This document shows, piece by piece, positions 9,714-61,053 of a stretch of 64,000 nucleotides of DNA. Origin of the DNA: Deltaproteobacteria bacterium (GTDB lineage: Bacteria > Desulfobacterota > Binatia > DP-6); the NCBI GenBank assembly GCA_005879795.1, contig VBKJ01000129.1, positions 1,931-65,930 of the forward strand, given 5' to 3'. Position 1 is the stretch's first letter; each line of letters begins with the position of its first letter. Below the pieces are notes generated by a model. It was not told where the DNA came from and searched no databases. It saw only the letters and a program-made list of their open reading frames with translations. The translations under genes were made by a program, and so were the position numbers.

Positions 9714-12907
<3,194 letters not shown>

Positions 12908-25218: not shown

Positions 25219-25761
25219 GTGCGCGTCGAGCTCGTCGCGAGCGGGGTGCTGCTCGGCCTCGCGGCCCTGTGGAGCGCACTCCGCGGCCTGCACCTCGCCG
25301 CCGCCCTCCAGCCGTCGCTCGGCGCGCTCGCCGTCGGTGCCACGTGCGGGCTCGCCCTCACCGCGAGCCTGCCGCTCGTCACCGCGCCCTGGGCGCATCG
25401 CATGCTCCTGCTGCGCGGGCTGCGCCGCGCCTGGGACTCGCTCGAGACGGACCTCGGGCCGAGCCTCGGCGCGCGCGAGGTGCTGGTCCTGGCCCTCGGC
25501 TCGGCGATCTCGGAGGAGGTGTTCTTCCGGGGCGTCCTCCAGCGCGAGCTGGGGATCGTCGCGGCGAGCGCGGCCTTTGGGCTCCTCCACCCGCTCGGCA
25601 TCGCCTACGTGCTGTGGGCCGCCGGCGTGGGCGCCGGGCTGGGCGCGCTCTTCGCGCTGACCGGGAGCCTGGCGGCACCCGCCGCCGCGCACGGCGTCTA
25701 CAACCTGCTGGCGCTCGTCTACCTCAGGCGGCGCTCCAACCCGCGCGAGGAGAGCCTGTGA
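25219..25761 (+). CDS. CPBP family intramembrane metalloprotease (CAAX protease-like)
   Basis: EEVFFRG motif and LLHPL...HGVYN motif in a polytopic membrane context; start uncertain. Confidence 0.6.
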   Translation: MRVELVASGVLLGLAALWSALRGLHLAAALQPSLGALAVGATCGLALTASLPLVTAPWAHRMLLLRGLRRAWDSLETDLGPSLGAREVLVLALGSAISEEVFFRGVLQRELGIVAASAAFGLLHPLGIAYVLWAAGVGAGLGALFALTGSLAAPAAAHGVYNLLALVYLRRRSNPREESL

Positions 25762-26315
25762 AGCGGGCGCTCGTCCCGCTCGCGCCCGGCTTCGAGGAGA
25801 TCGAGGCGATCACCATCGTCGACGTGCTCCGCCGCGCGGGCGTCACGGTCGACGTCGCCGGGACGGAGCCGGGACCGATCACCGGCTCGCACGGCATCAC
25901 CGTCGCGCCCGACCGGACGCTCGCCGGCATCGACGCGGGCGCCTACGACCTGGTCGCGCTGCCCGGGGGCATGCCGGGCACCCTCCACCTGCGTGCGCAC
26001 CCGGAGGTGCGACGGATCGTGCGCGACCTCGCCGAGCGCGGGCGCTACACGACCGCGATCTGCGCCGCCCCGACCGTGCTCGCCGCGGCCGGTGTGACCG
26101 CGGGGCGCGCGCTGACCAGCCACCCCTCGGTCGCTCGGGAGCTCGCGGGGGCGGCCTACCGGGAGGATGCGGTGGTCGCCGACGGGCCCGTCATCACGAG
26201 CCGCGGCGCGGGGACGGCGATGGAGTTCGCGCTCACCCTGGTCGAGACGCTGGTCGACCGCGCGACCGCAGAGCGGCTGCGCCAGCACATGGTGGTGCCG
26301 GCAGCCTCGCGTTGA
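25758..26315 (+). CDS. DJ-1/PfpI family protein
   Basis: VALPGGMPGT...AICAAP nucleophile-elbow Cys; GTG start overlaps the upstream stop. Confidence 0.8.
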   Translation: MKRALVPLAPGFEEIEAITIVDVLRRAGVTVDVAGTEPGPITGSHGITVAPDRTLAGIDAGAYDLVALPGGMPGTLHLRAHPEVRRIVRDLAERGRYTTAICAAPTVLAAAGVTAGRALTSHPSVARELAGAAYREDAVVADGPVITSRGAGTAMEFALTLVETLVDRATAERLRQHMVVPAASR

Positions 26316-27284: not shown

Positions 27285-27400
27285 TTGCCTTATCCAGAGT
27301 GGCTGAGGGCCCGGCCCGGCGACGCCACAGCAACCGGTCCTGAAACGGACGCTGGTGCTAATTCCGACGCTGCCCGCGCGGGCGGCGAAAGATAAGGTTC
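27285..27400 (+). ncRNA. SAM-I (S-box) riboswitch aptamer
   Basis: P1 CUUAUC...GAUAAG; conserved GAGGGcccGGCCCggcGAcGCCacaGCAACC, GGUGCUAAUUCC and GAAAGAUAAGG blocks in canonical order. Confidence 0.9.
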
Positions 27401-27410
27401 GCACGCTGGT

Positions 27411-27446
27411 GAGCCCCTCTTCCTGCTGGAGAGGGGCTTTTTTATT
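27411..27446 (+). terminator. intrinsic terminator (riboswitch expression platform)
   Basis: GAGCCCCUCUUCC-ugcugg-AGAGGGGCU hairpin followed by UUUUUUAUU, 5 nt before the first ATG. Confidence 0.85.
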
Positions 27447-27450
27447 GCGC

Positions 27451-28167
27451 ATGTCGACGACGAGCGAAGAAAGGATTTCCCGCGGGCGCGTCCTCGTGAT
27501 CGGCGTCGGCGGCCTCGGTGCGCCCGCCGCGACGGCGCTCGCCGCCGCGGGCGTGGGGACGGTCGGGCTCATCGATCCCGACACGGTCGAGGTCTCGAAC
27601 CTCCACCGCCAGCCGCTCTACACGAGCGCGGACGTCGGCCGGGCGAAGGTCGAGGTCGCGGCCGAGCGGCTCGGCGCGCTCGCGCCGGCGCTCCGCGTCG
27701 AGACGTGGCGCGCGCGCTTCGGCCCGGCGGACGCCCATCTGCTGCGCGGCTTCGACGTCGTCCTCGACGGCACGGACACCATCGCCGCCAAGTTCGTCGT
27801 GAACGACGCCGCGGTGGCGGCGGGCGTGCCGCTCGTCCACGCGGGCGTGCTCGGCTTCCGCGCGCAGCTCCTGACCGTGCTGCCGGGACGAAGCGCGTGC
27901 TACCGCTGCGTCTTCGAGGAGGCGCCGCCGGCGGGCGATGTGCCGTCCTGCCAGGAGGCCGGCGTGCTCGGGCCGGTCGCCGCGCTCGCGGGCGCGCTCG
28001 AGGCGGCCGAGGCGATCCGCCTCCTCGCCGGCGAGCCCCCCGCCTGGGCGAACGCGCTCCTCGCCATCGACACGCAGGCGGGGAGCTGGCGCACCGTGCC
28101 GGTCGCTCCGAGTCCGCGCTGCCCGGCGTGCGTGCCCCGCGCCGCCGAAAGGAGTCACGCCCCATGA
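27451..28167 (+). CDS. E1-like adenylyltransferase (MoeB/ThiF family), N-terminally short
   Basis: VLVIGVGGLGAPAATALAAAGVG nucleotide loop; CYRC...CPAC zinc motif; lacks the usual N-terminal RYSRQ helix. Confidence 0.8.
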   Translation: MSTTSEERISRGRVLVIGVGGLGAPAATALAAAGVGTVGLIDPDTVEVSNLHRQPLYTSADVGRAKVEVAAERLGALAPALRVETWRARFGPADAHLLRGFDVVLDGTDTIAAKFVVNDAAVAAGVPLVHAGVLGFRAQLLTVLPGRSACYRCVFEEAPPAGDVPSCQEAGVLGPVAALAGALEAAEAIRLLAGEPPAWANALLAIDTQAGSWRTVPVAPSPRCPACVPRAAERSHAP

Positions 28168-29417
28168 GCTACGTGAAGGGTCTCCGCTGCCGCGAGTGCG
28201 GCGCCGAGACGCCGATCGCGCCGTTGCACGTGTGCGAGACGTGCTTCGGCCCGTTCGAGGTCCAGTACGACTACGCCGCCATCCGCCGCGCGCTGACCCG
28301 CGAGAAGATCGCCGCCCGCCCGCGCAACCTCTGGCGCTACCGCGAGCTCCTGCCGATCGAGGGCGAGCCGCGCGTCGGGCTCCACTCGGGCATGACGCCG
28401 CTGGTGCGCGCGGACCGGCTGGCCGCCGTGCTCGGCGTGAAGGAGCTCTGGGTCAAGGACGACTCGGTCAACCACCCGACCTTCTCCTACAAGGACCGAG
28501 TCGTCTCGGTCGCGATCTCGAAGGCGATCGAGTTCGGCTTCGAGACCGTGTCGTGCGCCTCGACCGGCAACCTCGCCAACTCCGTCTCGGCGCACGCGGC
28601 GCGCGCCGCCCTCGCCTGCTACATCTTCATCCCCGACGACCTCGAGCAGGGCAAGGTGATCGGGTCCACCATCTACGGCCCGCGCACCATCGCCGTGCGC
28701 GGCACCTACGACGACGTGAACCGGCTGTGCAGCGAGGTGGCGGACAAGTACGGCTGGGCCTTCGTCAACATCAACGTGCGTCCGTACTACACGGAGGGCG
28801 CCAAGACCTACGGCTTCGAGATCGCGGAGCAGCTCGGCTGGCGGCTCCCGAGGCACATCGTGGTCCCGACCGCGGGCGGCACGATCCTGCCCAAGGTCGC
28901 CAAGGCGTTCCGCGAGCTGCGCGACCTCGGCCTGGTCGAGGGCGATTTCAAGATCTACACGGCGCAGGCGGCGGGCTGCGCCCCCGTCGTGCACGCGCTC
29001 CACAAGGGCGCGGAGCTCATCGCCCCCGTGAAGCCGCAGACGATCGCCAAGTCCATCGCCATCGGCAACCCGGCCGACGGCTTCTACGTGCTCAAGGCCG
29101 TGCGCGAGTCGGGCGGCTGGGGCGAAGCGGTGACCGACGAGGAGATCGTGGCCGGCATCCGGCTCCTCGCCCGCACCGAGGGGATCTTCACCGAGCCCGC
29201 GGGCGGCACGACGGTCGCGGTCACCAAGAAGCTGATCGAACAGGGGAGGATCCCCCGTGATGAGTCGATCGTCGTGAGCATCACGGGCAACGGCTACAAG
29301 ACGCTCGAGGCGGTGCTCGACACGGTCGAGCAGCCGTTCCGCATCCCGGCCCGCCTCGCCGACTTCGACGAGCTGCACGCTCGCCTGAACGCCGCCCGCG
29401 CGGCGAGCGCCGTCTGA
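28164..29417 (+). CDS. threonine-synthase-like PLP enzyme (MetM-like candidate homocysteine synthase) with N-terminal zinc ribbon
   Basis: N-terminal CRECG...CETC; PLP lysine in FSYKDR; GGAG RBS; ATG overlaps the upstream stop (ATGA). Confidence 0.85.
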   Translation: MSYVKGLRCRECGAETPIAPLHVCETCFGPFEVQYDYAAIRRALTREKIAARPRNLWRYRELLPIEGEPRVGLHSGMTPLVRADRLAAVLGVKELWVKDDSVNHPTFSYKDRVVSVAISKAIEFGFETVSCASTGNLANSVSAHAARAALACYIFIPDDLEQGKVIGSTIYGPRTIAVRGTYDDVNRLCSEVADKYGWAFVNINVRPYYTEGAKTYGFEIAEQLGWRLPRHIVVPTAGGTILPKVAKAFRELRDLGLVEGDFKIYTAQAAGCAPVVHALHKGAELIAPVKPQTIAKSIAIGNPADGFYVLKAVRESGGWGEAVTDEEIVAGIRLLARTEGIFTEPAGGTTVAVTKKLIEQGRIPRDESIVVSITGNGYKTLEAVLDTVEQPFRIPARLADFDELHARLNAARAASAV

Positions 29418-29445: not shown

Positions 29446-29721
29446 ATGGTCCAGGTCAAGGTACCAACGCCGCTCCGCAAGTACACGGGGGGCGCCGGGG
29501 GGATCGAGGCGCAGGGGGCGACGGTGGCCGCGCTCGTGGACGATCTCGAGCGGCGCTACCCGGGGCTGAAGGAGCGCATCTGTGACGAGTCGGGACAGGT
29601 GCGGCGCTTCGTGAACATCTTCGTCAACGGCGAGGACATCCGCTTCCTCGCGCACCTCGACACGCCCCTCAAGGCGGGGGACGAGCTGTCGATCGTCCCG
29701 GCGATCGCCGGAGGCCGCTAG
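29446..29721 (+). CDS. MoaD/ThiS/CysO-like sulfur-carrier protein ending in Gly-Gly-Arg
   Basis: 91 aa with a beta-grasp pattern; C-terminus ...SIVPAIAGGR. Confidence 0.7.
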   Translation: MVQVKVPTPLRKYTGGAGGIEAQGATVAALVDDLERRYPGLKERICDESGQVRRFVNIFVNGEDIRFLAHLDTPLKAGDELSIVPAIAGGR

Positions 29722-29734
29722 CCGCGGCCCTCCT

Positions 29735-30721
29735 GTGCTCTCCGCGCGCGCCGTCCTTGCCCGTCCGACCTCGCCCGCCGCGGGGCCGCTCGCCGTGCCC
29801 TCCGCGCTCCAGCTGGTCGGCAACACGCCGCTGGTCGAGATCCGGCGCGCGCGGGACGGCGTGGCGCCGGGGGTGCGCATCCTCGGCAAGCTCGAGGGCT
29901 TCAACCCCGGCGGCTCGGTGAAGGACCGCCCCGCCCTCAAGATGATCGAGGACGGGCTCGCGCGCGGGCGGCTCGTGCCCGGGAAGACGATCCTCGACTC
30001 CACCTCGGGCAACACCGGCATCGCGCTCGCCATGGTGGGCGCCGCGCTCGGCTACCCGGTCGAGCTGGTGATGCCGGGCAACGTGAGCAAGGAGCGCAAG
30101 CAGGTGGTGGCCGCCTTCGGCGCCAAGGCGATCTTCTCGGACCCGCTCGAGGGCTCCGACGGGGCGATCCGCCTCTGCCGTCAGATACTGGCCGAGAACC
30201 CCGACCGCTACTTCAAGCCCGACCAGTACAACAACGAGGCGAACTCGCTCGCCCACTACGAGACCACGGGCCCCGAGATCTGGCGCCAGACCGCCGGCGC
30301 CATCACGCACTTCGTCGCCACCATCGGCACCGGCGGGACGATCATGGGGACGGGGCGCCATTTGAAGGAGCAGAACCGGAGCGTCCAGGTGATCGCCGCC
30401 GAGCCCGCCGACGCCTTCCACGGCATCGAGGGGCTCAAACACATGGCGTCCTCGATCGTACCCGGCATCTATCACGAGGAGGCGCTCGACCGGAAGCTCG
30501 GGATCGACACCGAGGACGCCTACAACATGGTCTACCGCCTCGGCCGCGAGGAGGGCCTGCTGCTCGGGCAGTCGAGCGGCGCGGCGCACGTGGCAGCGCT
30601 CGAGGTGGCGCGCGCACTCCGCGAGGGGACGGTGGTCGTCCTCTACCCCGACTTCGGCGACCGCTACCTCTCGACCAACCTGTGGGTCGGCTGGCAGAAG
30701 CTGGGAGGGACGACGCCATGA
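29735..30721 (+). CDS. cysM: cysteine synthase B-like PLP enzyme (CysM/CysK family)
   Basis: PLP lysine in GGSVKDR; GTGGT loop; full-length match. Confidence 0.85.
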   Translation: MLSARAVLARPTSPAAGPLAVPSALQLVGNTPLVEIRRARDGVAPGVRILGKLEGFNPGGSVKDRPALKMIEDGLARGRLVPGKTILDSTSGNTGIALAMVGAALGYPVELVMPGNVSKERKQVVAAFGAKAIFSDPLEGSDGAIRLCRQILAENPDRYFKPDQYNNEANSLAHYETTGPEIWRQTAGAITHFVATIGTGGTIMGTGRHLKEQNRSVQVIAAEPADAFHGIEGLKHMASSIVPGIYHEEALDRKLGIDTEDAYNMVYRLGREEGLLLGQSSGAAHVAALEVARALREGTVVVLYPDFGDRYLSTNLWVGWQKLGGTTP

Positions 30722-31002
30722 AGCGGCCGCCGCCACGCCTCGCCAAGGCGGAGCCCGCGCCGGTCGCGCGCGGGAAGTTCTACCTCACCTACCCGAAGAA
30801 GCTCGTGAAGGAGCCGCTCATCTACCAGATGAGCCGGAAGTTCGACCTGGTGTTCAACGTGCGCAGCGCGAGCGTCAGCGAGGAGATCGGCATCATCGCC
30901 CTCGAGCTCGACGGCCGGCAGGGGGAGATCGACGCCGCCGTCGAGTGGTTCCGCGCCCAGGGCGTCACCGTCGAGCCGATCGAGAAGAACGTCATCGAGT
31001 GA
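30718..31002 (+). CDS. stand-alone NIL-domain protein (MetN C-terminal-like ferredoxin fold)
   Basis: 94 aa; ...LIYQMSRKFDLVFNVRSASVSEEIGIIALELDG... is the pattern of the NIL domain; ATG overlaps the cysM stop. Confidence 0.55.
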   Translation: MKRPPPRLAKAEPAPVARGKFYLTYPKKLVKEPLIYQMSRKFDLVFNVRSASVSEEIGIIALELDGRQGEIDAAVEWFRAQGVTVEPIEKNVIE

Positions 31003-31004
31003 TG

Positions 31005-31628
31005 CTGACCGAGGCGCAGATCGAGCGCTACAGCCGCCAGATCGTGCTGCCCGAGGTGGGCGGGGGCGGGCAGGAGCGGCTGCTCGCGGCGCGCGTCGTG
31101 CTGGCCGGTGACGGGCCGGCGGCGGAGGCGGCCGCCACCTTCCTCGGCCGCGCGGGTGTGGGCGCGCTGCACCTCCAGGCGAGCGCCGGCGCGCTGTCCG
31201 AGCTGTCGCCCGACTGCCAGGTGAGCCGCCACGCGGGCCTCGAGGAAGCGCCTGCGGCCGGCGTCGTCGTCGACCTGACGCCAGACACCGCGTTGAGCGC
31301 CGTGCTCGCCCGCCGGGCACAGGCGGGGCGGCCGTGCGTGCTCGGCGCCCTCAGCGGAGCGATGATCTTCGTCTTGACGCTGGTCGGGCGGCCGTGCGTC
31401 GCCTGCCTCGGCTCGGAGCGCCTGGAAACGCGCCGCGCCGCCCGCGGGCCGCTCGCCGCGCCGGCGCTGCTCGGGCTCGGTGCGCTGGCGGCGAACGAGG
31501 CGCTTCGCGTCCTGCTCCTGCCTCCGGCCCGCGGCCGCCTGGTCAGCCTCGGGCTCGAGAGCGCCATCGTGAGCGCGGTCGAGGTGAGGTCCACCGCCGG
31601 CTGCGCCTTCTGCGGCGGCCGCCCGTGA
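31005..31628 (+). CDS. E1-like paralog with RYSRQI N-terminus but a degenerate nucleotide-binding loop
   Basis: MLTEAQIERYSRQIVLP...; Gly-rich loop replaced by VVLAGDGPAAEAA; CVAC...CAFC zinc motif retained. Confidence 0.6.
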   Translation: MTEAQIERYSRQIVLPEVGGGGQERLLAARVVLAGDGPAAEAAATFLGRAGVGALHLQASAGALSELSPDCQVSRHAGLEEAPAAGVVVDLTPDTALSAVLARRAQAGRPCVLGALSGAMIFVLTLVGRPCVACLGSERLETRRAARGPLAAPALLGLGALAANEALRVLLLPPARGRLVSLGLESAIVSAVEVRSTAGCAFCGGRP

Positions 31629-32806
31629 CCCACCCCGCGCACTGGAAGCCCGAGCTCGCCGCGCGCGGGGTGCGCCTCGACGCGAGCGCGGCGCGCCTGG
31701 GCGCCGGTGACACGGCGCGCCCCCTCGAGCTCGCCCTGCTCGACGACGTCCGCGTCGGCGTCCCGATCGACGAGCGCTCCCCATTCGTCCTCTTCGCCGA
31801 CAGCGCCCGGCACTTCCTCGTGCGCCGCGATCCGGGCGGGGCCGAGAGCGCGCGCGTCGAGGTGCGGCCCATCCCGCGGCCCGGCTTCTACGAGCGCCGC
31901 ACGAGCCGCGGCACGCCCATGGCGCGGATCGCCACCGTGCGCGGCAGCCACCTGCTCGTGAACCCGAGCAGCGCGTGCGGCTTCAGCGTGCGCGGCACGC
32001 CGTGCCGCTTCTGTGTCGAGGGTGCGCGCGTCTCCGCCGAGCGCGACGCGGTCCCGGTGGCCGACGTCCTCGAGGTCGTGCGCGCCGCGTTCGACGAGGG
32101 CGCGTGCGAGCTGGTGTACTTCAACACCAGCCACTTCGAGAGCGAGGACGGCGGCATCGCCTTCCTCGCCCCCTACATCGAGGCGGTGCGCCGGCACTTC
32201 GACACGCTGATCGCGACCCAGGTCCATCCGCCCCGCGCGACCCACTGGATCGACGAGACCTACGCCATGGGGGTCGACGCGCTCAGCTACAACCTCGAGA
32301 TCTTCGACCCCGACGTGTTGAACCGCCACTGCATCGGGCGCGCACGCTACATCGGGCGCGAGCGCTACCTCGAGTCCCTGGCGCACGCCGCCAGGGTGTT
32401 CCCGAGCGGCACGGTGTGGAGCGACCTGGTGCTCGGCCTCGAGCCCGCGGACTCGACGATCGCCGGCATCGACGCGCTGGTCGAGATGGGGGTGGTGCCG
32501 GTGGCCGCCCTCCTGCGGGGCGAGCACCCGCTGCCCGCGCCGGCCGACGTGGCGCCCCTGCTCGCGCACCTCTACCGCGCCGTCAAGCGCCGCGGCATCA
32601 ACATGGGCTGGGTGCGCGACCTGGCGCTCGGCATCACGCCCCTCGAGGCGCGTCACTTCGCCGGCGACGGCGCCCGCCTCGCGGTGACCGTCCAGCAGCT
32701 CACCCGCTCGCGCCTGGGCGCGCTCGCGGCGCGCGGCCTCGCCCGCTTCCGCCGCCGCCTGCGCGTGCGCAAGGTGAGCGAGTCGTTCGACGCCGCGCAC
32801 CTGTAG
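31625..32806 (+). CDS. putative Fe-S (radical-SAM-like?) TIM-barrel enzyme with an atypical Cx8Cx2C motif
   Basis: SSACGFSVRGTPCRFCVEG near the N-terminus of a ~390-aa alpha/beta protein; GTG overlaps the upstream stop; family not recognised. Confidence 0.45.
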   Translation: MTHPAHWKPELAARGVRLDASAARLGAGDTARPLELALLDDVRVGVPIDERSPFVLFADSARHFLVRRDPGGAESARVEVRPIPRPGFYERRTSRGTPMARIATVRGSHLLVNPSSACGFSVRGTPCRFCVEGARVSAERDAVPVADVLEVVRAAFDEGACELVYFNTSHFESEDGGIAFLAPYIEAVRRHFDTLIATQVHPPRATHWIDETYAMGVDALSYNLEIFDPDVLNRHCIGRARYIGRERYLESLAHAARVFPSGTVWSDLVLGLEPADSTIAGIDALVEMGVVPVAALLRGEHPLPAPADVAPLLAHLYRAVKRRGINMGWVRDLALGITPLEARHFAGDGARLAVTVQQLTRSRLGALAARGLARFRRRLRVRKVSESFDAAHL

Positions 32807-34281
32807 TGGCTCGCCCGCAAGAGCGGCAGCACGCGCCGGCCGACGTCGTCATCGACACCCGGCCGCTGTGGCGCATCCTCGCCGAGCGCACCTACCGGCC
32901 GGTCGTGCTGGCGATGGGGCTCCTCGGCTTCCTCGCGCTACGCGCCATGGCGCCGCCCGCCGGTCTCTCGGCCGCCGGGCAGAGCGCGCTCGCCATCTTC
33001 GCCCTCTGCCTCGTCTACTGGGTGACGAACGTCATCCCGCTCATGGTGACGAGCCTGCTCGCCATGGTGCTCCTGCCGACCACGGGTGCGCTGCCCGCCC
33101 GGGACACCTACGCGCTCTTCGGCAACGAGGCGGTCTTCTTCATCCTGGGCGCCTTCATCCTCGCCGCCTCGCTCATGAAGTGCGGGCTCTCGACCCGGAT
33201 CGCGATCGCCGTGCTGCGCCGCTTCGGCCACACGCCGCGCGCGCTCCTCCTCTCGCTCTTCCTGATGAACGCCTTCATGGCGTTCTTCATGTCGGAGCAC
33301 GCGGTCGCCGCCATGACCTTCCCGATCACGGTCGAGATCGCGCGCGTGCTCCGCCTGCCGCGCCAGCAGAGCAACTACGGGCGCGCCCTCTTCCTCGCCA
33401 TGGCGTGGGGCACGCAGATCGGCGGCATCGCGACCCTCCTCGGCGGCGGACGGGCGCCGCTCGCGCTCGGCATGCTGCGCGACTTCAACGGCCAGACCTA
33501 CAGCTTCGCCCAGTGGACGCTCGCCGCCTGGCCGCTGGTGGCGGTGCTGCTGGCGGTGGGCTGGCAGGTGATCGTGCGCTTCTTCCCGATCGACATCACC
33601 TCCGTGCGCGACGCCGACGTCGTCATCGCGGAGAAGGCGCTCCGCCTGGGACGGCCCTCGGGCAAGGAGAAGTCGATCGCCCTGGTGATGCTCGGCACCC
33701 TCGCCGCCTGGATCGTCGGGGGCGAGGAGTTCGGGCTCGCCACCATCGCGCTCGGCGCGGTGGTGCTCCTCTTCGTCCTGGACCTCCTCAGCTGGCGCGA
33801 CATCGAGCAGTACGTGAACTGGGGCGTGCTCCTCATGTACGGCGGCGCGATCGCGCTCGGCTCGGCCCTCAACCGCTCGGGGGCCTCGACCTTCATCGCG
33901 AGCGTCACCGTGAGCCGCTGGGCGCACAGCCCGCTGGCCGTCGTCGCCATGATCTCCGCCCTGGGCATCCTGCTGACCGAAGCGATGAGCCACTCGGCGG
34001 TGGTCGCGCTGCTCATGCCGGTGGCCCTCGGCATCGCGGCGCAGTTCGGGATCGATCCGCGCGTCATGGCGCCGGCGGTGGCGCTGCCCGCGGGGCTCGC
34101 CTTCACGCTGCCCGTCGGCACGCCCGGGAACGCGATCGCGTACTCGTCGGGCTATCTCCGCCTGCGCGACATGCTCGTGCCGGGCTCGGTCATGGTGGTG
34201 ATCGCGTGGGCAGCGTTCAACCTGGTGGCGCGGTACTACTGGCCGCTGATCGGGCTCACGCTCGCCGCGCCGCGGCCGTGA
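32806..34281 (+). CDS. DASS/SLC13-family anion:Na+ symporter (sulfate/thiosulfate/dicarboxylate-type)
   Basis: Polytopic protein with duplicated halves and conserved SNT-like motifs (TNVIPLMVTS, TLPVGTPGNAIAY); start uncertain (GTG 32806 or ATG ~32913). Confidence 0.75.
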   Translation: MARPQERQHAPADVVIDTRPLWRILAERTYRPVVLAMGLLGFLALRAMAPPAGLSAAGQSALAIFALCLVYWVTNVIPLMVTSLLAMVLLPTTGALPARDTYALFGNEAVFFILGAFILAASLMKCGLSTRIAIAVLRRFGHTPRALLLSLFLMNAFMAFFMSEHAVAAMTFPITVEIARVLRLPRQQSNYGRALFLAMAWGTQIGGIATLLGGGRAPLALGMLRDFNGQTYSFAQWTLAAWPLVAVLLAVGWQVIVRFFPIDITSVRDADVVIAEKALRLGRPSGKEKSIALVMLGTLAAWIVGGEEFGLATIALGAVVLLFVLDLLSWRDIEQYVNWGVLLMYGGAIALGSALNRSGASTFIASVTVSRWAHSPLAVVAMISALGILLTEAMSHSAVVALLMPVALGIAAQFGIDPRVMAPAVALPAGLAFTLPVGTPGNAIAYSSGYLRLRDMLVPGSVMVVIAWAAFNLVARYYWPLIGLTLAAPRP

Positions 34282-34367: not shown

Positions 34368-34604
34368 ATGAGCACGAGAGCGAAGCTGTTCTGGAACGGA
34401 CGCAGCCAGGCGGTCAGGCTGCCGAAGGAGTTCCGCTTCAGCGGCGACGAGGTCCTCATCCGCCGGGCGAACGACAAGGTGATCCTCGAGCCCGTTCACA
34501 AGGGCTGGGACGATACCTTCTGGGCCTGCTTCGGTAAGCTCTCGGACGACGTCGAGCGGACCGAGTTCGTGGCGAGCGAGCGCCGCGAGGATGCCTTCCC
34601 CTGA
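34368..34604 (+). CDS. vapB: VapB antitoxin (AbrB/SpoVT-MazE fold)
   Basis: 78 aa with a swapped-hairpin N-terminus (AKLFWNGRSQAVRLPKEFRF); overlaps vapC. Confidence 0.8.
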   Translation: MSTRAKLFWNGRSQAVRLPKEFRFSGDEVLIRRANDKVILEPVHKGWDDTFWACFGKLSDDVERTEFVASERREDAFP

Positions 34605-35002
34605 GGTACCTGCTCGACACCAACATCTGCATCTACGCCCTGAAGCGCCGGCCGCCCGAGGTTCTGAGTCGGCTCGAGCGCCTCACGCCCGCCGACGTCG
34701 CCGTGAGCGCCGTGACCGCGGCCGAGCTCAGGTTCGGGGCGAGCAAGAGCTCCGCTCCGGAGCGGAATCATCGCGTGCTCGACGTCTTCCTCGGGCACAT
34801 CAACGTGCTCGCCTTCGACGTCGATGCCGCGACGAGCTATGGACGGGTGCGCGCCCATCTCGAGCGACGGGGGCGTCCGATCGGCGCGATGGACACGCTG
34901 ATCGCCGCCCACGCGCTCTCCCTCGGGGCGACGCTCGTCTCGAACAACGTCCGTGAGTTCAAACGGGTCCCGAGATTGCGGTGCGAGAACTGGGTCAGTT
35001 AG
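34601..35002 (+). CDS. vapC: VapC PIN-domain toxin (apparent CTG start)
   Basis: [13 protein letters not shown]...TAAEL...[13 protein letters not shown] are the PIN acidic residues; no in-frame ATG/GTG/TTG upstream of the catalytic Asp; CTG at 34601 overlaps the vapB TGA. Confidence 0.7.
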
Positions 35003-35036: not shown

Positions 35037-36296
35037 ATGCCCGATCTGATCCCTCCCCACGGCGGCCTGACCGAGCCCGTCTCCCTGACCGTCCCCGCGC
35101 ACGAGGTGGAGCGGTTCCGGGCGGAGGCGGCGCGCCTCGCCAGGGTGCCGGTCTCCGACTCCGACCTCTCGAGCGTCTATCGCTTCGGCGACGGCGGGCT
35201 CTCCCCGCTCACCGGCCCGATGGACGCGGCCACCTACCAGCGCGTCCTCGACGAGTGCGTGATCGAGCGCGGCGGCCGGCTCTACGCCTGGACGATCCCG
35301 ATCGCGCTGCCCGTGACGGCGGAGCTGGCGCGGAAGCTCGGGCGCGGAGAGACCGTCGCGCTGACCAACAGCGCCGGCGCCGTGGTCGCGACCCTCGCCA
35401 TCAGCGACGTCTACCCGTGGGACAAGGCGAAGTACCTGCGCAGCGTCTACGGCACCGAGCGCACCGACCATCCCGGCGCCGACATGGTGCTCAAGGGCGA
35501 CGCCGACAGGACGCACCTCCTCGGCGGCCGGCTGCGCGTGCTCCCGCAGCCGACGCACCCCGCGTTCGGGAGGTACGTGCTCACGCCGCGCGAGGTGCGC
35601 CGCCTGCTCGCCGCCAGGGGCTGGGACCGCGTGGTCGCCTTCCAGACCCGCAATCCGCTCCACCGCGCGCACGAGTATGCGCTCGTCTACGGGCTCGAGA
35701 CCCTGCTCCGGGCCGGGCACGACGCGGGCGCGGCTCTCAACCCCCTCATCGGCGAGACCAAGGGCGACGACGTGCACGCCGACGTGCGCATGCGGACCTA
35801 CGAGGCGCTCATCGAGACGCGCGCCCTCGGCGAGGGCGACAGCGATCCCACGCTCTGGGGGCCGCGCGGCGAGTCGGTGCCCGACCGGGTCATCCTCCTC
35901 GGCCTCGACATCAAGATGTTCTACGCCGGCCCGAAGGAGGCGGTGATGCACGGCATATACCGGCAGAACTTCGGCTTCACCGACCTGGTCGTCGGCCGCA
36001 AGCACGCGGATGCGCCCTTCCACGACGGCACGCCCATCTGGGGCGACTTCGACGCGCAGGAGGTCTTCGGCTCGCTCCGGGGCGACCTCGGGATCAAGCC
36101 CGTCAAGGTCGGCTTCGCCGCCTACTACGAGTCGGTCGGGCGCGTCGACCTGATGGACAACCATCCCGGCGAGAAGCCGCTCACCATCTCCGGCAAGGAC
36201 GTGCGCAGGGCGCTCCTCGAGGGCCGCGAGGTGGACCCGCGCATCATGCGGCCGAGCACGGCGCGGATCCTCGCGGCGGCGATGACCGGGGGCTGA
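35037..36296 (+). CDS. sat: sulfate adenylyltransferase (ATP sulfurylase)
   Basis: [11 protein letters not shown] and GRKHAD motifs; full-length match. Confidence 0.9.
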
Positions 36297-53861: not shown

Positions 53862-55285
53862 TCAAGGCGTCCCGAGGCCGCGCCGGCCCGTCCGCCGGCG
53901 CTCCTGCCGCTCGCGCGCCCGCTCGCGCACCAGGGGCTCCAGCTCCGCGATCGCCCGCTCGACCTCGGCCTGCCGCGCGCTGCCCGGCGTGACCAGGCGG
54001 TCGGTGTGCTGGAACTGGCTGAGCGCCTGCTCGAGCTCGCCGCGCAGCCGCGAGGCGAGCGCCAGGTGGTAGAAGCCCTCGGCCTCGTCGCCCTTGCGCC
54101 CGAGGGCGATGCCGGTCAGGCGCTGTGCCTCGTCGGAGTCGGGGTCGAGGCCGAGCGCGCGCTGGAACTCGGTGAGCGCGGCCGGGCTGTCCCCGGCGTC
54201 GTTGAGCGCCTTGCCGAGCTGGGTGTGCGCGAAGGCATCGTCGGGATGCCGGGCGAGGTGGCGCTCGAGCGCCTCGCGCGCCTTGGCCGGCTCCTTGAGC
54301 GCCACGTACACGCTCCCGAGCGGACGATCGACGCGACCACCGACGCCCCCGAGGTCACGGCACTTCTCGAGCGCCCCGCGCGCTGCCTCGAGCTGGCCGA
54401 CGGTCTGGTAGACGCGTCCGAGGAGGAGCTGCCGCTCGGCGTCGTCCGGCTTCTCCTCGGCGAGCCGGCGATAGCGAGGGATGACCACGTCGGGCGGGTC
54501 CGCGATCGCGCGCGCCACCGCCTGGGTCTCCGCCAGCTCGGCGGACCCGGCGGGGCGGCCGGCGGGAGTCTTGAGCCTCTGCGCGTTGATGGTGGTCTCG
54601 ACGTGCGAGACGCGGTCCTCGGTCACCGGGTGCGTCAGCATGTACGCCGGCACCCCGGCCGGGTTGATGCGCTGCTCGGTGAGCAGGGTCTTGAAGAACG
54701 AGCCCATCGCGTGCGGGTCGTAGCCGGCCTGGCTCGCGTAGCGGAGCCCCAGGTAGTCGGCCTCCTGCTCGAACTCGCGCGAGAACTTGAGCTGCGCGGT
54801 CTCCGCCGCGGCGATCCCGGCGGCGCCGGCGACCGGGTTGACGGCCGAGAGGAGGAGGCCGAGCAGCGCGGCCGCCGACCACACCTGCCCCTTCTCCTGC
54901 TGGCGCACGATGTGGTGCCCGCTCACGTGGCCCATCTCGTGTCCGAGCACGCCCGCCAGCTCGTCGTCGTTGGCGACCCGCGCGAGGAGACCCGAGAAGA
55001 TGAACACGTAGCCGCCCGGGACGGCGAAGGCGTTCAGCACCGGGGACTGGACGACGTAGAAGCGGTAGTCGAACTCCTGCGCCCCGAGCGTCTTCACCAG
55101 CCGAGCACCGATACGCCCGACGTACTCGGTGACGGCGGGGTCCTCGACCAGCGGGAGCTCGGAGCGCGCGGCGAGGAAGAAACGCCGGCCGAGCTCGCTC
55201 TCGCCGCCCTCGCCGGCCGCGACCTGGCCCGCGAGCGCCATGGCAACGCCGAGCGCCGCCGCGAGGGTGGAGCCCCGGCGCCTCA
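53862..55285 (-). CDS. M48 peptidase with C-terminal TPR domain (BepA/YfgC-like)
   Basis: Signal peptide; HEMGHVSGHH zinc motif; TPR repeats at the C-terminus. Confidence 0.8.
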
Positions 55286-56263
55286 TCGCCGTGCGAGCCC
55301 CCGCGCCACGTCCTGCGCGAAGTACGTGATGATGATGTCGGCGCCCGCGCGGCGGATGGCCACCAGGCTCTCCTCGACCACGCGCGCCTCGTCGATCCAG
55401 CCGCGCTCCGCCGCGGCCTTCACCATCGCGTACTCCCCGCTCACCTGGTAGGCGGCGACCGGGTACCCGAAGCGCTCCTTCACGCGGCGCACGACGTCGA
55501 GACAGGGGAGCGCGGGCTTCACCATGACGATGTCGGCGCCCTCCTCGATGTCGAGCGCCACCTCGCGCAGCGCCTCCTCGGCGTTCGCGGGGTCCATCTG
55601 GTAGGAGCGCCGATCGCCGAACTGCGGCGCCGACTCGGCTGCGTCGCGGAACGGGCCGTAGAAGGCGGAGGCGAACTTGGCCGCGTAGGCCATGATCGGG
55701 AGGTGAGCGAAGCCCGCCGCGTCGAGGGCCGTGCGGATCGCCCCCACGCGGCCGTCCATCATGTCGGAGGGCGCGATCACGTCCGCCCCGGCCCGCGCGT
55801 GCGCGAGCGCTTCGGCCGCGAGCAGCTCGAGGGTCGGATCGTTGTCGACCTCGCCGTCCTTCACCACGCCGCAGTGGCCGTGGTCGGTGTACTCGCAGAG
55901 GCAGACGTCGGTCACGAGGACGAGCCCCGGCGCCGCCTCGCGGATGGCCCCGAGCGCGCGCGGGATGATGCCGCCCGGATCGGTGGCGCCGCTGCCGCGC
56001 GCGTCCTTCCGCTCCGGCACGCCGAAGAGGATGACGGCCGGCACGCCCAGGTCCCCGAGGCGCCGGCATTCCTCGGCCGCGCGATCGACCGAGCGCTGCG
56101 CGATGCCCGGCATCGACCCGACCGGCTTCTCGACCCCACGGCCGGGAACGACGAAGAGCGGCTGCACGAGCTGCGCCGCGTCGACGTGCGTCTCCCGTAC
56201 CAGGCGGCGGAGCGCCTCAGTCCGGCGCAGCCGCCGGGGGCGGTAGGCGGGAAAGCGGCTCAT
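55283..56263 (-). CDS. hemB: porphobilinogen synthase
   Basis: Full-length HemB match with the active-site Lys context ([11 protein letters not shown]). Confidence 0.95.
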
Positions 56264-56475
56264 GACGGAGCCCGCATTAAAGCATCGGAGCGCGGCCTCT
56301 GGAAACGGCCCCGCCGGCCATCATGGCCTCGCCTCAGCGACGCGGCCCTGGTACGAGAGGTCCTTCATCGAGCGCCCTCAGGATGGCGCAGTGCGACGTG
56401 GGGCTCATCCGCTGTGCGTTCACCTGCAACCAGTTTGTATGCCGGTGAGGACCTCGCCATCGAGTCTCACGCCCG

Positions 56476-58026
56476 CTACGCCGCCGCGTCCCTGCCGAAG
56501 TGCCGGGCGAGGGCTGCGGCCAGCGCGGCGGCCGTGTAGGCGGCCGGCATCACGTCGACACGCAGGCCGAGGTCCCGCGCCGTCGCGGCCGTCACCGGAC
56601 CGATGCAGGCGACCGCCGGGCCGCCGTCGCCGGCAAGGCGCGCCGCCGCCGGCCGGCCGAGCAGCTCGACGAAGTTCCTGACCGTGGAGCTGCTCGTGAA
56701 GGTGACGGCATCGACGGCTCCCGCCTCGAGCGCCGCCGTGAGGCCGGCCACGTCCGCCTCGCCCGGGGGCACGGCGCGGTACGCGACCACCTCGTCGACC
56801 CGCGCGCCGCGCGCGCGGAGCGCTTCGGGGAGGACCGGGCGCGCGCCCGCGGCCCGCGGGAGGAGGACGCGGCGGCCACGCATGTCCTCGTCCGCGAGCG
56901 CCGCGACCAGCCCCTCGGCGCGGTAGTCCTCGGCCGCCACCGCGACGCGCAGGAGGCGGCGCTCGAGCTGGGCCGCGGTCTCGGGCCCGATGGCGGCGAG
57001 GCGCACCGGCTCGAGCTCGCGTACGTCGCGCCGCGCGGCGGCGAAGCGCGTGAAGAACGCCTCGACGCCGTTGGCGCTGGTGAACACGATCCAGTCGTAG
57101 CCGCCCGCCGCCGCCACCGCGCGCTCGAGGGGCGCGGGATCGGCCGGCGGCACGATCGCGATGGTCGGGAACGGGATCACCTCCGCCCCCTCGGCTTCCA
57201 GCAGGTCCGCCAGCGCGCCCGCCTGCGCGCGCGGCCGGGTCACGACGACGCGCCGGCCGAAGAGCGGGCGCTCCTCGAACCAGGCGATCCGCTCGCGGAG
57301 CGTGACCACGCTCCCGACGACGACGACCCCCGGGGCCACGAGCCCCGCCGCGCGCACGCGCGCGGCCAGCGTCGCCGCGCTCGCGACCACGGTCGCCTGT
57401 GCGCCCGTCGTGCCGCTCTGAATCGCGGCGGCCGGGGTGTCGGGGGGGAGCCCGTGCGCGATGAGCGCCGCCATGATCGCGGGCATCTGCCGCATGCCCA
57501 TGAGGAAGACGAGCGTGCCGCCGTGGCGCGCGAGCGTCTCCCAGGGCAGCGCGGGCGGCACCACCTCGTCGCCCACGCGCGCCTGGTGCCCGGTCGCGAT
57601 GGTGACCAGCGAGGCATGGTCGCGGTGCGTGAGCGGGATGCCGGCGTAGGCCGGCACCGCGAAGGCGGACGACACGCCGGGGACGATCTCGAACGGTACG
57701 CCCGCGCGGCGCAGCGCCTCCGCCTCCTCGCCGCCGCGGCCGAGAAGGAAGGGATCCCCGTTCTTCAAGCGCACAACGGTCTTGCCGGCGCGCGCGCGCT
57801 CGACCAGCAGCGCTTCGACCGCCGCCTGGCTCGGCCGGTCGGAGTCGTCGTGCGAGCGGCCAAGGGCGACCACCTCCACCCCGGGGCGGACGAGCTCGAG
57901 CAGGCGCGGGCCGACCAGGCGGTCGTGCACGACCACGTCGGCACTGGCCAGGCAGCGCTCACCGCGCCGGGTGAGGAGGCCCGGATCGCCCGGCCCGGCC
58001 CCCACCAGGTACACGCGCCCGGTCAT
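56476..58026 (-). CDS. cobA-hemD: fused uroporphyrinogen-III C-methyltransferase / uroporphyrinogen-III synthase
   Basis: N-terminal VYLVGAGPGDPGLLT (SUMT), C-terminal HemD-like half. Confidence 0.9.
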   Translation of the reverse strand: MTGRVYLVGAGPGDPGLLTRRGERCLASADVVVHDRLVGPRLLELVRPGVEVVALGRSHDDSDRPSQAAVEALLVERARAGKTVVRLKNGDPFLLGRGGEEAEALRRAGVPFEIVPGVSSAFAVPAYAGIPLTHRDHASLVTIATGHQARVGDEVVPPALPWETLARHGGTLVFLMGMRQMPAIMAALIAHGLPPDTPAAAIQSGTTGAQATVVASAATLAARVRAAGLVAPGVVVVGSVVTLRERIAWFEERPLFGRRVVVTRPRAQAGALADLLEAEGAEVIPFPTIAIVPPADPAPLERAVAAAGGYDWIVFTSANGVEAFFTRFAAARRDVRELEPVRLAAIGPETAAQLERRLLRVAVAAEDYRAEGLVAALADEDMRGRRVLLPRAAGARPVLPEALRARGARVDEVVAYRAVPPGEADVAGLTAALEAGAVDAVTFTSSSTVRNFVELLGRPAAARLAGDGGPAVACIGPVTAATARDLGLRVDVMPAAYTAAALAAALARHFGRDAAA

Positions 58027-58922: not shown

Positions 58923-58926
58923 GCCG

Positions 58927-60228: not shown

Positions 60229-60231
60229 GGC

Positions 60232-61050: not shown

Positions 61051-61053
61051 CCC

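Follow-up and report, generated by a model that had tools for sequence, protein, structure and literature searches.

A sulfur carrier capped after Gly-Gly in a SAM-riboswitch operon of an uncultured soil Binatia bacterium: probably a precursor trimmed by a peptidase encoded elsewhere

How can a sulfur carrier enter its chemistry when its own gene places one more amino acid after the terminal Gly-Gly? In the MoeB-MoaD and ThiF-ThiS pairs, the carboxylate of the terminal glycine is adenylated, so that an extra residue blocks the reaction. The question is raised by a small gene in DNA of a Binatia bacterium, located in a window (i.e., the whole stretch that was analysed) of 64 kb. The gene and its 3' end are as follows.

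29446..29721, + strand: sulfur-carrier ORF of 91 aa, CysO/MetO-type, in pro-form, with Pfam, NCBIfam and PDB matches
29710..29715, + strand: Gly-Gly codons at the carrier 3' end
29716..29718, + strand: codon of the cap Arg
29719..29721, + strand: stop codon TAG

The ORF starts with ATG, has an AGGAGG Shine-Dalgarno sequence 9 nt upstream, and its GC3 of 0.93 is typical of real genes in the 64-kb window. The Pfam family ThiS (PF02597) matches it with 1.4e-18 and 67.6 bits against a cutoff of 22.5, profile positions 1-76 lying on residues 4-90, and the NCBIfam model TIGR01687 moaD_arch reaches 59.4 bits against a cutoff of 49.5. Its closest solved relatives are the CysO structures 4n6e_B (5.1e-24) and 3dwg_C from M. 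tuberculosis (1.1e-22), aligned over residues 2-90. The protein ends in ...AIAGG-R (codons GGA GGC CGC TAG, i.e., Gly89-Gly90-Arg91-stop). In the PDB alignments the terminal Gly-Gly of both CysO chains falls on residues 89-90, and the PF02597 profile ends (76/76) at residue 90, which places Arg91 outside the C-terminus of the family. With Arg91 behind these residues, a free C-terminal Gly-Gly is absent from the primary translation product. The identical 91-aa protein was found in at least 46 blocks of public metagenome assemblies, including six independent JGI soil contigs (L085-L090; L numbers denote the loci compared). A sequence-only reading of this DNA had described a CysO/MoaD-type carrier with one Arg after Gly-Gly, and had allowed that re-sequencing might bring the stop directly behind the glycines; the first two points are borne out, and the stop position is reproducible.

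Do the relatives carry the cap as well? The best 120 homologues, with at least 78% identity, include 114 full-length proteins, and every one of these 114 ends in Gly-Gly plus exactly one residue, none in Gly-Gly; the orthologues are thus not uniformly plain, an outcome that would have spoken against the sequence-only reading. The added residue is Arg in 93 of them, followed by Ala (7), Cys (5), Gln (3), Trp (2), Ser (2), Gly (1) and Leu (1). A wider set of 80 carriers, from 79 distinct related genome loci and the window itself (52-88% identity), is divided: 31 carry 1-12 further residues after Gly-Gly, in sequences unrelated to one another, 49 end plainly, and a neighbour-joining tree shows at least 12 gains or losses of the tail. 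In a set of 150 cluster representatives there are plain Gly-Gly ends and short tails, as well as tandem carriers and fusions of the carrier with NIL or with E1. The occurrence of tails, fusions and tandem carriers side by side suggests that a GG-directed endopeptidase is a general requirement of the carrier family. Judged by these comparisons, the cap behaves as a disposable, common feature, and in annotation a residue after Gly-Gly in such carriers may be taken as a normal part of a precursor, not as an error.

Another question is what the carrier is for. The operon is headed by a regulatory element.

27287..27398, + strand: SAM-I riboswitch aptamer (RF00162), a match at the Rfam gathering threshold
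27411..27445, + strand: intrinsic-terminator-like hairpin and T-run, the riboswitch expression platform, behind the aptamer and ahead of the E1 start codon

The aptamer scores 80.8 bits in Rfam against a cutoff of 44.4 (E 1.9e-17, full model 1-108), and the hairpin has a 12-bp stem with 7 GC pairs, then TTTTTTAT. The element recurs in 10 of the 14 related loci tested, standing upstream of the operon in five from Binatia (L001, L002, L007, L009 and L012), and upstream of a gene similar to threonine synthase (ThrC-like) in four from Verrucomicrobia and one from a Planctomycete. The genes that accompany the carrier are these.

27451..28167, + strand: E1-like adenylyltransferase (ThiF/MoeB family), probable catalytic subunit; Pfam ThiF 4.8e-70
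28164..29417, + strand: threonine-synthase-like PLP enzyme; Pfam PALP 3.4e-70, NCBIfam PRK08197 324 bits
29735..30721, + strand: CysM-like cysteine synthase (PLP), with NCBIfam and PDB matches, 14 nt downstream of the carrier
30718..31002, + strand: stand-alone NIL-domain protein; Pfam NIL 1e-15, PDB matches being MetN C-terminal domains
30999..31628, + strand: degenerate E1-like protein (pseudo-E1), aligning to ThiF 6-60 and 87-247
31625..32806, + strand: variant radical-SAM protein (CX8CX2C); NCBIfam NF045502 variant_rSAM 152.5 bits against a cutoff of 125
32806..34281, + strand: DASS-family anion (sulfate-type) symporter; Pfam Na_sulph_symp 7.1e-61, TIGR00785 267 bits
35037..36296, + strand: sulfate adenylyltransferase Sat, an adjacent sulfur-assimilation gene; Pfam ATP-sulfurylase and PUA_2

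The ThrC-like protein carries an N-terminal Cys4 zinc-ribbon extension, and solved threonine synthases align to it only from residue 52-58 onward. Its gene ends 28 nt upstream of the carrier gene and, in 65 of the 79 related loci, across several phyla, immediately precedes it; this synteny, under a SAM riboswitch, led us to reject CysM as the tightest partner of the carrier. We infer that the ThrC-like enzyme is a homocysteine synthase of the MetM type, and the pair of genes behind its riboswitch reads as a MetM/MetO-type homocysteine module. The CysM-like protein scores 377.5 bits with TIGR01138 cysM, just under the cutoff of 394.2, and 353 bits with TIGR01136 cysKM, above the cutoff; its best PDB matches are CysM/OASS-B enzymes (M. 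tuberculosis CysM 3dwg_A, 1.6e-61), and O-phosphoserine is its putative substrate. The MetM-like and the CysM-like enzyme apparently share one capped carrier. The NIL domain folds like the C-terminal, methionine-binding domain of MetN, and its gene adjoins the ThrC-like/carrier pair in many phyla; proteins fusing carrier and NIL also exist. The Sat gene is adjacent in related loci in either orientation. Neither an HcyD-type JAMM nor a MetY-type sulfhydrylase is present in the operon, the PLP enzymes of which are the ThrC-like and the CysM-like proteins. Collectively, the neighbouring genes and the riboswitch point to an operon that makes methionine and cysteine by way of a thiocarboxylate, in an uncultured soil Binatia bacterium.

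The activating enzyme deserves a closer look. The E1 consists of 238 aa and of a ThiF domain alone, aligning to residues 23-244 only of E. coli ThiF, so that it is without the N-terminal Arg-finger helix; the start, 27451, falls behind the terminator and matches JGI gene calls of 238 aa. A rhodanese domain is absent too, and MoeZ models match the adenylation part only (NF005902, positions 35-262 of 392). The pseudo-E1 keeps an N-terminal 'ERYSRQI' Arg-finger helix and two CxxC pairs but no longer has a Gly-rich loop or the segment of the ATP site. Such degenerate genes co-occur with N-terminally truncated E1 genes in Binatia and in four Polyangia loci (L027-L030). From these features the E1 looks split, its Arg finger sitting on the degenerate partner. 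The enzyme is probably a heterodimer of a catalytic subunit and a pseudo-E1 that supplies the Arg finger, and, if confirmed, it would be a bacterial counterpart of the heterodimeric architecture of eukaryotic E1s. A literature search found no prior description of a split bacterial E1, which is not proof of novelty. Is this enzyme the cause of the tail, given that unusual adenylation chemistry had been suggested as one explanation? The E1 is indeed unusual in its split Arg finger; as an explanation of the tail the suggestion is not supported, because the split E1 also serves plain-GG carriers in Polyangia. The pseudo-E1 was likewise considered as a replacement for the JAMM peptidase, and was dropped, as the Polyangia operons contain both.

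Where, then, is the peptidase? The motif H-x-H-x(5-14)-[ST]-x-x-D has no match in the coding frames of the 64 kb, and the two matches of a six-frame scan both lie in non-coding frames. A JAMM HMM built from 13 genuine JAMMs and run with --max on all six-frame ORFs of at least 50 aa found no match in the 64-kb window. Pfam, applied to 30 of the ~70 predicted window proteins (all operon genes plus those that could not be named by eye), returned no JAB, Prok-JAB or carboxypeptidase family. Further afield, no JAMM was found within 10 kb of the operon in any of the ~20 Binatia-type loci examined. Protein-database searches were seeded with JAMMs from the nearest JAMM-bearing operons; with the JAMM of the Polyangia locus L027, as with a four-sequence profile of that subtype, the best 120 matches were all Polyangia/Myxococcota-like, and none of the matches listed was attributable to Binatia.

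The absence of a JAMM from the operon, claimed by the sequence-only reading, therefore extends to the whole window by motif, custom HMM and Pfam on 30 proteins. Its companion rule, that tailed carriers are paired with an operon JAMM, fails in this carrier family: among the 79 distinct related loci, a JAMM is missing from the locus of 28 of 30 tailed carriers, and 12 of the 14 JAMM-bearing loci have carriers ending in plain Gly-Gly. That reading is thus partly supported, standing on the carrier type, the Arg and the missing JAMM and falling on operon pairing and odd adenylation; its suggestion of a peptidase at a distance is still the best candidate explanation.

Within the loci that hold both CysM and E1, 18 of 19 tailed carriers are without a cis JAMM and 12 of 16 plain-GG carriers have one. 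The trend in these loci, confounded by clade, runs opposite to the simple expectation that a tail needs a JAMM, and a correlation of the tail with a cis JAMM was rejected.

Why JAMM adjacency does not track the tail may be understood from the known role of Mec+, which hydrolyses the CysO-cysteine adduct (PMC3227635): release of the amino-acid product calls for a JAMM in any case, with or without a tail. The homologous Polyangia operons (L027-L030) have a JAMM directly after CysM; L025 has one and its close relative L021 does not; in the Planctomycete locus L052, the carrier of which ends in GG-CCC, the JAMM is part of an adjoining unit that precedes the riboswitch. Gene positions of this kind suggest that the JAMM belongs to the carrier system but moves around between loci.

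These data can be combined in one reading, which we consider probable although by no means assured: the carrier is a precursor in a SAM-controlled sulfur-amino-acid operon, and the peptidase that trims it, most likely a JAMM of the Mec type, is encoded elsewhere. At low SAM, the riboswitch would permit transcription of the operon. Arg91 would then be clipped, exposing Gly-Gly-COOH, and the operon E1, probably in its heterodimeric form, would adenylate Gly90; a sulfide or persulfide donor may convert the adenylate to the thiocarboxylate. From the latter the MetM-type enzyme, presumably with O-phosphohomoserine, would form homocysteine, and the CysM-like enzyme, with the carrier thiocarboxylate as its putative sulfur source, cysteine. 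Hydrolysis of the carrier-amino-acid adduct would release the product and regenerate the carrier. Both the clipping of the cap and this last hydrolysis would need a peptidase cutting exactly after Gly-Gly, which neither the operon nor the window encodes. The best candidate is a Mec/HcyD-type JAMM metalloprotease elsewhere in the genome, acting in trans. Such a distal enzyme is assumed, since the database matches listed are all Polyangia/Myxococcota-like and none could be assigned to Binatia. The ~20 Binatia-type loci without a cis JAMM, the company of tails with cis-JAMM absence and the E1 without a rhodanese domain also count against this reading. Action in trans has a precedent in D. radiodurans, where dr_0402 cleaves the MoaD-MoaE fusion DR2607 (PMC8832034).

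Perhaps a peptidase of another kind does the work: a cytosolic carboxypeptidase, a housekeeping exopeptidase or an unrecognised Binatia hydrolase that removes the cap and possibly hydrolyses the adduct too. The tail of the closest clade, always a single residue, could be removed by an exopeptidase, and the lack of a JAMM in cis in any Binatia-type locus, the lack of Binatia among the listed matches and the association of tails with cis-JAMM absence all agree with the idea. However, an exopeptidase would explain neither the tails of 2-12 residues nor the domain fusions of the carrier family, and would not free the Cys/Hcy adduct, for which known systems need a GG-specific amidase (PMC3227635). 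The operon is not accompanied by any conserved carboxypeptidase or other plausible peptidase of the cytosol, and the peptidase-like genes of the window are poor candidates.

25219..25761: Rce1-like CPBP, membrane-bound
25758..26315: DJ-1/PfpI
53862..55286: M48, a secreted BepA-like protein

As maturases they were rejected for being membrane-bound, secreted or not conserved beside the operon of L001 and L002, where the Rce1-like and DJ-1/PfpI genes are absent from the equivalent position. We regard a non-JAMM peptidase as unlikely.

Could these Binatia, with their GG-X carriers, be without any JAMM, some other unrecognised peptidase or amidase clipping the cap and freeing Cys/Hcy alongside the bacterial heterodimeric E1? 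The enzyme might possibly be linked to the variant radical-SAM, NIL and pseudo-E1 genes. If true, a thiocarboxylate amino-acid pathway would be able to run without a JAMM; we consider this decidedly unlikely. The variant radical-SAM protein as the JAMM replacement is not supported: its gene is kept in the closest Binatia operons only and is absent from the JAMM-less Binatia loci L013-L023, NCBIfam places it in a radical-SAM family, and no PDB relative of it was found.

Might the Arg simply be retained, with a split E1 that tolerates or uses GG-R, or with a carrier acting without a thiocarboxylate, e.g., by binding the PLP enzymes non-covalently or by regulating them? The atypical E1, with its missing Arg-finger helix and separate pseudo-E1, and the residue after Gly-Gly in 114 of 114 full-length close homologues (of the best 120) are in its favour. 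This is nevertheless very improbable: the blocked glycine carboxylate counts against it, in Polyangia the split E1 handles carriers that end in plain Gly-Gly, the remaining operon genes form a canonical thiocarboxylate toolkit, and the identity of the cap is not conserved, its eight different amino acids arguing against a chemical or recognition role.

Slighter still is the chance that the carrier is mainly a ubiquitin-like protein modifier (SAMP/Urm1-like conjugation) and its cap the usual precursor tail. Such tails are typical of ubiquitin-like modifiers, and the NCBIfam SAMP1 model (NF041918) gives 64.5 bits, above its cutoff of 60. The gene context, however, is purely metabolic, the carrier lying between two PLP sulfhydrylase-type enzymes with a SAM riboswitch and with genes for sulfate uptake and activation; the nearest structures are CysO proteins, and the locus has no E2/E3-like or proteasome-related genes. 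Finally, that a sequencing or assembly error moved the stop codon, or that the gene is decaying, can be dismissed: no point in its support was found, and it is refuted by the ends of the 114 homologues and the recurrence of the identical protein in independent assemblies, with a strong Shine-Dalgarno sequence and normal codon bias besides.

The locus would represent a compact, SAM-switched thiocarboxylate route in an uncultured soil phylum. To our knowledge, the routes that lead through protein thiocarboxylates to cysteine and methionine have so far been poorly charted in organisms other than actinomycetes and Wolinella. Beside such carriers, above all where a SAM riboswitch precedes them, genes annotated as 'threonine synthase' probably encode homocysteine synthases, and the missing peptidase marks a concrete gap in the carrier pathway.

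How does this locus relate to systems already described? SAE1/UBA2 and NAE1/UBA3 are heterodimeric eukaryotic E1s. The Binatia E1 would resemble these, as well as Tcd1/Tcd2, in joining a catalytic ThiF-fold subunit to a degenerate paralogue that gives an N-terminal Arg finger in trans; in contrast to the eukaryotic enzymes, the pairing is deduced from sequence alone, i.e., from a bacterial sulfur-carrier operon in which a truncated E1 and a pseudo-E1 are encoded by separate genes. Arg11 of ThiF and Arg14 of MoeB act in trans, and yeast Tcd1-Tcd2 is a further case (PMC13139853).

The one-residue cap has a counterpart in Wolinella succinogenes. Its homocysteine pathway of HcyS, HcyD and HcyF, reportedly described by Krishnamoorthy and Begley in 2011, is said to use a carrier capped as HcyS-Ala; the cap, the synthesis of homocysteine and the link to sulfate/sulfite assimilation genes would thus be common to both systems. 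The Wolinella operon is said to contain the JAMM HcyD and a MetY-type O-acetylhomoserine sulfhydrylase, whereas that of Binatia has no JAMM and a ThrC-like enzyme.

GG-specific JAMMs encoded far from the substrate gene that expose the C-terminal Gly of a MoaD-family protein are found in DRJAMM of D. radiodurans (dr_0402, acting on DR2607) and the archaeal HvJAMM1, but what they cleave is MoaD-MoaE fusions or SAMP conjugates, which belong to molybdopterin metabolism, rather than a carrier for Met/Cys with a one-residue cap.

Closer in sequence is the CysO-CysM-Mec+ system of M. tuberculosis: the carrier shares ~45-50% identity with CysO along its whole length (3dwg_C, 1e-22), the CysM-like gene is immediately downstream, and by analogy the chemistry would again lead from a thiocarboxylate through a carrier-Cys adduct to its hydrolysis. 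CysO ends in Gly-Gly and the Binatia carrier in GG-R; mec is adjacent in M. tuberculosis and absent at the Binatia locus; MoeZ has the rhodanese domain that the Binatia E1 is without; and the Binatia carrier is tied more tightly to the ThrC-like enzyme than to CysM.

A close parallel is MetM/MetO of Streptomyces albulus, a thiocarboxylate route to homocysteine. A preprint (bioRxiv 10.1101/2024.10.14.618325, citing Hasebe 2024) describes a ThrC homologue, a carrier that needs Mec for its maturation, and MoeZ; a SAM riboswitch lies upstream of metM (PMC12172450). Both systems set a small ThiS/MoaD-type carrier beside a threonine-synthase homologue with a SAM riboswitch upstream, a likeness in gene order and riboswitch. 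The S. albulus carrier precursor needs a Mec-type peptidase, and peptidase and E1 can be encoded away from metM-metO. The Binatia locus differs in its host, which is not an actinomycete, in having no Mec/JAMM located there, in an E1 without the rhodanese domain of MoeZ, and in an operon that gathers E1, CysM-like enzyme, NIL protein, pseudo-E1, variant radical-SAM protein and sulfate-type permease around the carrier.

The carrier gene lies in an operon whose features, with a neighbouring gene pair, are the following.

25219..26315, +, Rce1-like protease and DJ-1/PfpI gene, upstream of a BamD-like gene
27287..27398, +, full-length SAM-I riboswitch RF00162 (80.8 bits, E 1.9e-17)
27411..27445, +, terminator (12-bp hairpin and T-run), immediately before the E1 start
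27451..28167, +, E1 (ThiF/MoeB family)
28164..29417, +, threonine-synthase-like (ThrC-like) PLP enzyme with N-terminal Cys4 ribbon
29446..29721, +, sulfur carrier, 91 aa (Pfam ThiS, CysO-like)
29735..30721, +, CysM-like enzyme
30718..31002, +, NIL-domain protein
30999..31628, +, degenerate E1-like protein (pseudo-E1)
31625..32806, +, variant radical-SAM protein
32806..34281, +, DASS permease
34368..35002, +, VapB/VapC pair (MazE-like antitoxin and PIN), apparent local insertion between permease and Sat
35037..36296, +, sulfate adenylyltransferase (Sat)

An AGGAGG ribosome-binding site precedes the ATG of the carrier ORF by 9 nt, and the codon bias (GC3 0.93, GC2 0.44) is like that of genuine genes in this 73% GC window. 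The product matches Pfam ThiS (PF02597; 1.4e-18), the profile ending at residue 90, and exceeds the cutoffs of the NCBIfam MoaD-family and SAMP1 models. The protein ends ...PAIAGG-R-TAG, encoded by GGA GGC CGC TAG (29710..29721). Among solved structures, the CysO proteins 4n6e_B (5e-24) and M. tuberculosis 3dwg_C (1e-22) are closest, and because their terminal GG aligns with residues 89-90, Arg91 is, on this alignment, a genuine one-residue extension, as the sequence-only reading had it. That reading might have failed in two ways, and neither is seen. There is no stop directly after GG: the identical 91-aa protein recurs in at least 46 blocks of public assemblies, and the same operon is present on six independent JGI soil contigs (L085-L090). 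Nor do orthologues uniformly end in GG: among the best 120 homologues (≥78% identity), all 114 full-length proteins have a single residue behind GG (R 93, A 7, C 5, Q 3, W 2, S 2, G 1, L 1), and none has a plain-GG ending. Sequencing error as the source of Arg91 is ruled out by this recurrence together with the 114/114 GG-X homologues.

How constant is such a tail across the carrier family? Among 80 carriers, from 79 distinct related loci (52-88% identity) and the window itself, 49 end in plain GG and 31 are tailed (R, A, S, W, E, N, TA, RG, RR, AA, DY, CCC, KDC, ARRA and a 12-mer), with at least 12 changes of tail state on an NJ tree. In a wider sample of 150 cluster representatives, 26 end in GG, 45 extend 1-3 residues beyond it and 22 extend 4-15, and some carry a NIL domain (proteins P0157, P0176, P0219, P0269) or an E1 (P0187, P0208, P0263) fused after GG, or are tandem carriers (P0121, P0150). 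Because the tail is labile in presence, length and sequence, and internal GG sites occur in the family, the simplest reading is that the cap is a disposable precursor piece, taken off by a GG-directed endopeptidase. Adenylation in MoeB-MoaD and ThiF-ThiS takes place at the carboxylate of the last Gly, so cap removal must precede it. Among individual loci, one on a complete Binatia chromosome (OZ241351.1; positions 10001..10300 of locus L017) has a carrier tail of 12 residues, GG-AFSPRLAAPETF, and its near kin L015 and L016 have plain GG ends; some Chloroflexi loci (L040, L047) have a second carrier, JAMM-linked and long-tailed.

Which enzyme, then, would remove the cap? That no JAMM metalloprotease lies near the carrier is confirmed for the 64-kb window. 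A six-frame motif scan gave two matches only, both in non-coding frames; a custom HMM, built from 13 genuine JAMMs of related loci and run without filters on every ORF of at least 50 aa, matched nothing in the window, nor in any of the Binatia-type loci; and Pfam searches of the operon proteins and of 20 further window proteins not recognisable by eye detected neither JAB nor carboxypeptidase domains. When the nearest JAMMs served as queries for database searches, the matches listed were all Polyangia/Myxococcota-like proteins. The sole peptidase-like genes in the window encode the Rce1-like membrane protease, the DJ-1/PfpI protein and a secreted M48/TPR protein. The Rce1-like/DJ-1 pair and the VapBC pair look like local insertions, because both are kept in the same-species contigs L085-L089, yet in the Binatia relatives L001 and L002 the former is missing at the equivalent position and the latter between permease and Sat.

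In related loci, genuine JAMM genes (NECCG...HSHx7SxxD, with PF14464 matches in Pfam on their database relatives) adjoin CysM or E1 in 15 cases. Four Polyangia operons with a JAMM otherwise parallel that of the window, in the order CysM-like, E1, ThrC-like, carrier, pseudo-E1, CysM, JAMM. The expectation that tailed carriers are normally paired with a nearby JAMM fails: across all 79 loci, 28 tailed carriers have none vs 2 with one, and plain GG occurs 12 times with a JAMM and 37 times without. Among loci with both CysM and E1, the tail comes without an in-locus JAMM in 18/19 (one has it) and plain GG with a JAMM in 12/16 (four lack it), the reverse of the expected pairing (Fisher p = 4e-5), in loci that are phylogenetically non-independent and confounded by clade structure. 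Adjacency that does not track the tail would be expected if the JAMM served throughout to hydrolyse adducts of carrier and amino acid, the role of Mec+ on CysO-cysteine (PMC3227635). JAMM placement also shifts: L025 has one and its relative L021 none, and in a Planctomycete locus (L052, carrier GG-CCC) it sits in a separate unit upstream of a riboswitch. In D. radiodurans, dr_0402 is a trans-acting JAMM that cuts the MoaD-MoaE fusion DR2607 (PMC8832034).

We consider it fairly probable that the carrier is a pro-protein whose Arg cap, and later Cys/Hcy adducts, would be cut by a Mec-type JAMM whose gene lies in another part of the genome. A non-JAMM peptidase acting instead is possible but rather unlikely. 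A carrier left unprocessed, or with a role without thiocarboxylate, is improbable, as the residue behind GG varies and the same type of E1 serves relatives with plain GG; a role as a SAMP-like modifier is, if anything, more doubtful, and an artefact is hardly conceivable.

Could unusual adenylation chemistry, also proposed at first, account for the tail? In the catalytic E1, which covers residues 23-244 of E. coli ThiF in the alignment, GxGGLG, SNLhRQ and the two CxxC pairs are retained; the protein has no rhodanese domain and misses the N-terminal helix (Arg finger). It has no farther-upstream start because riboswitch and terminator fill that sequence; the longer ORF from 27355 was rejected accordingly. 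The pseudo-E1 (209 aa) aligns to ThiF 6-60 and 87-247, retains 'ERYSRQIVLPEVGGGGQERL' and the zinc cysteines, has a degenerate Gly-rich loop (LAGDGPAAEAAA) and lacks ThiF 61-86, the segment bearing the ATP-site motif. The equivalent N-terminal Arg (ThiF Arg11, MoeB Arg14) enters the ATP site of the partner subunit (PMC13139853). Where an E1 lacks the RYxRQ segment, a pseudo-E1 gene accompanies it in those Binatia and Polyangia (L027-L030) loci with enough sequence, and the partner proteins conserve the '[YWF][SA]RQ' arginine; no partner was detected at L060 and L074, and the RYxRQ-bearing E1s of Chloroflexi, Planctomycete, Caldisericum and Acidobacteria loci have no such partner. The E1 thus reads like a split pair, catalytic plus pseudo-subunit. 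Such a split leaves the cap unaccounted for, since those Polyangia that share it have carriers ending in plain GG, and unusual adenylation is not supported as the reason for the tail.

Since riboswitch and terminator lie immediately 5' of the E1 start, the entire operon is predicted to be SAM-regulated. Its gene order is kept in Candidatus Binatia MAGs (L001-L012), and a SAM-I riboswitch heads the operon in five further Binatia loci; in four Verrucomicrobia loci (one from Methylacidiphilum fumariolicum SolV) and one Planctomycete locus it lies directly 5' of the ThrC-like gene. That gene is immediately 5' of the carrier in 65/79 distinct loci (carriers 52-88% identity). Because solved threonine synthases align with the window enzyme only from residue 52-58, its zinc-ribbon extension marks a separate subfamily. 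The NIL domain has the fold of the MetN methionine-binding regulatory domain, which fits a methionine pathway; in many phyla the ThrC-like/carrier pair comes with a stand-alone NIL-domain protein. The variant radical-SAM protein (CX8CX2C; NCBIfam NF045502, 152.5 bits) found no relative in a PDB search, and its gene is kept within the operon of the closest Binatia relatives and absent from more distant ones. Elsewhere, at 55283..61581 (-), lies what we take by eye to be a tetrapyrrole cluster, presumably encoding porphobilinogen synthase, a uroporphyrinogen-III methyltransferase/synthase fusion, hydroxymethylbilane synthase, glutamyl-tRNA reductase, a CcsA-like protein and a siroheme-synthase-like N-terminal domain. 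Such a cluster might provide siroheme for sulfite reduction.

Since sulfur carriers with a cap and JAMMs that act in trans are both on record, known biology accounts for most of the finding as posed. The novelty lies in a Binatia SAM-riboswitch operon that groups MetM-like and CysM-like enzymes around a single capped carrier, has no cis-encoded JAMM, and adds an apparently split E1, a NIL protein and a variant radical-SAM protein. SAE1/UBA2 and NAE1/UBA3 are eukaryotic catalytic-plus-pseudo-subunit E1s; the putative two-subunit plan here would be similar. The closest parallel to the pathway is in Streptomyces albulus, where a thiocarboxylate methionine route uses the carrier MetO, the ThrC homologue MetM (frequently misannotated as threonine synthase) and the E1 MoeZ, with Mec needed for MetO maturation (bioRxiv 10.1101/2024.10.14.618325), and a SAM riboswitch lies 5' of metM (PMC12172450). 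The window locus likewise pairs a carrier with a ThrC-like gene, with a SAM riboswitch upstream, and by this analogy it would match such a route; here one carrier probably serves both enzymes, since its gene sits between the MetM-like and CysM-like genes.
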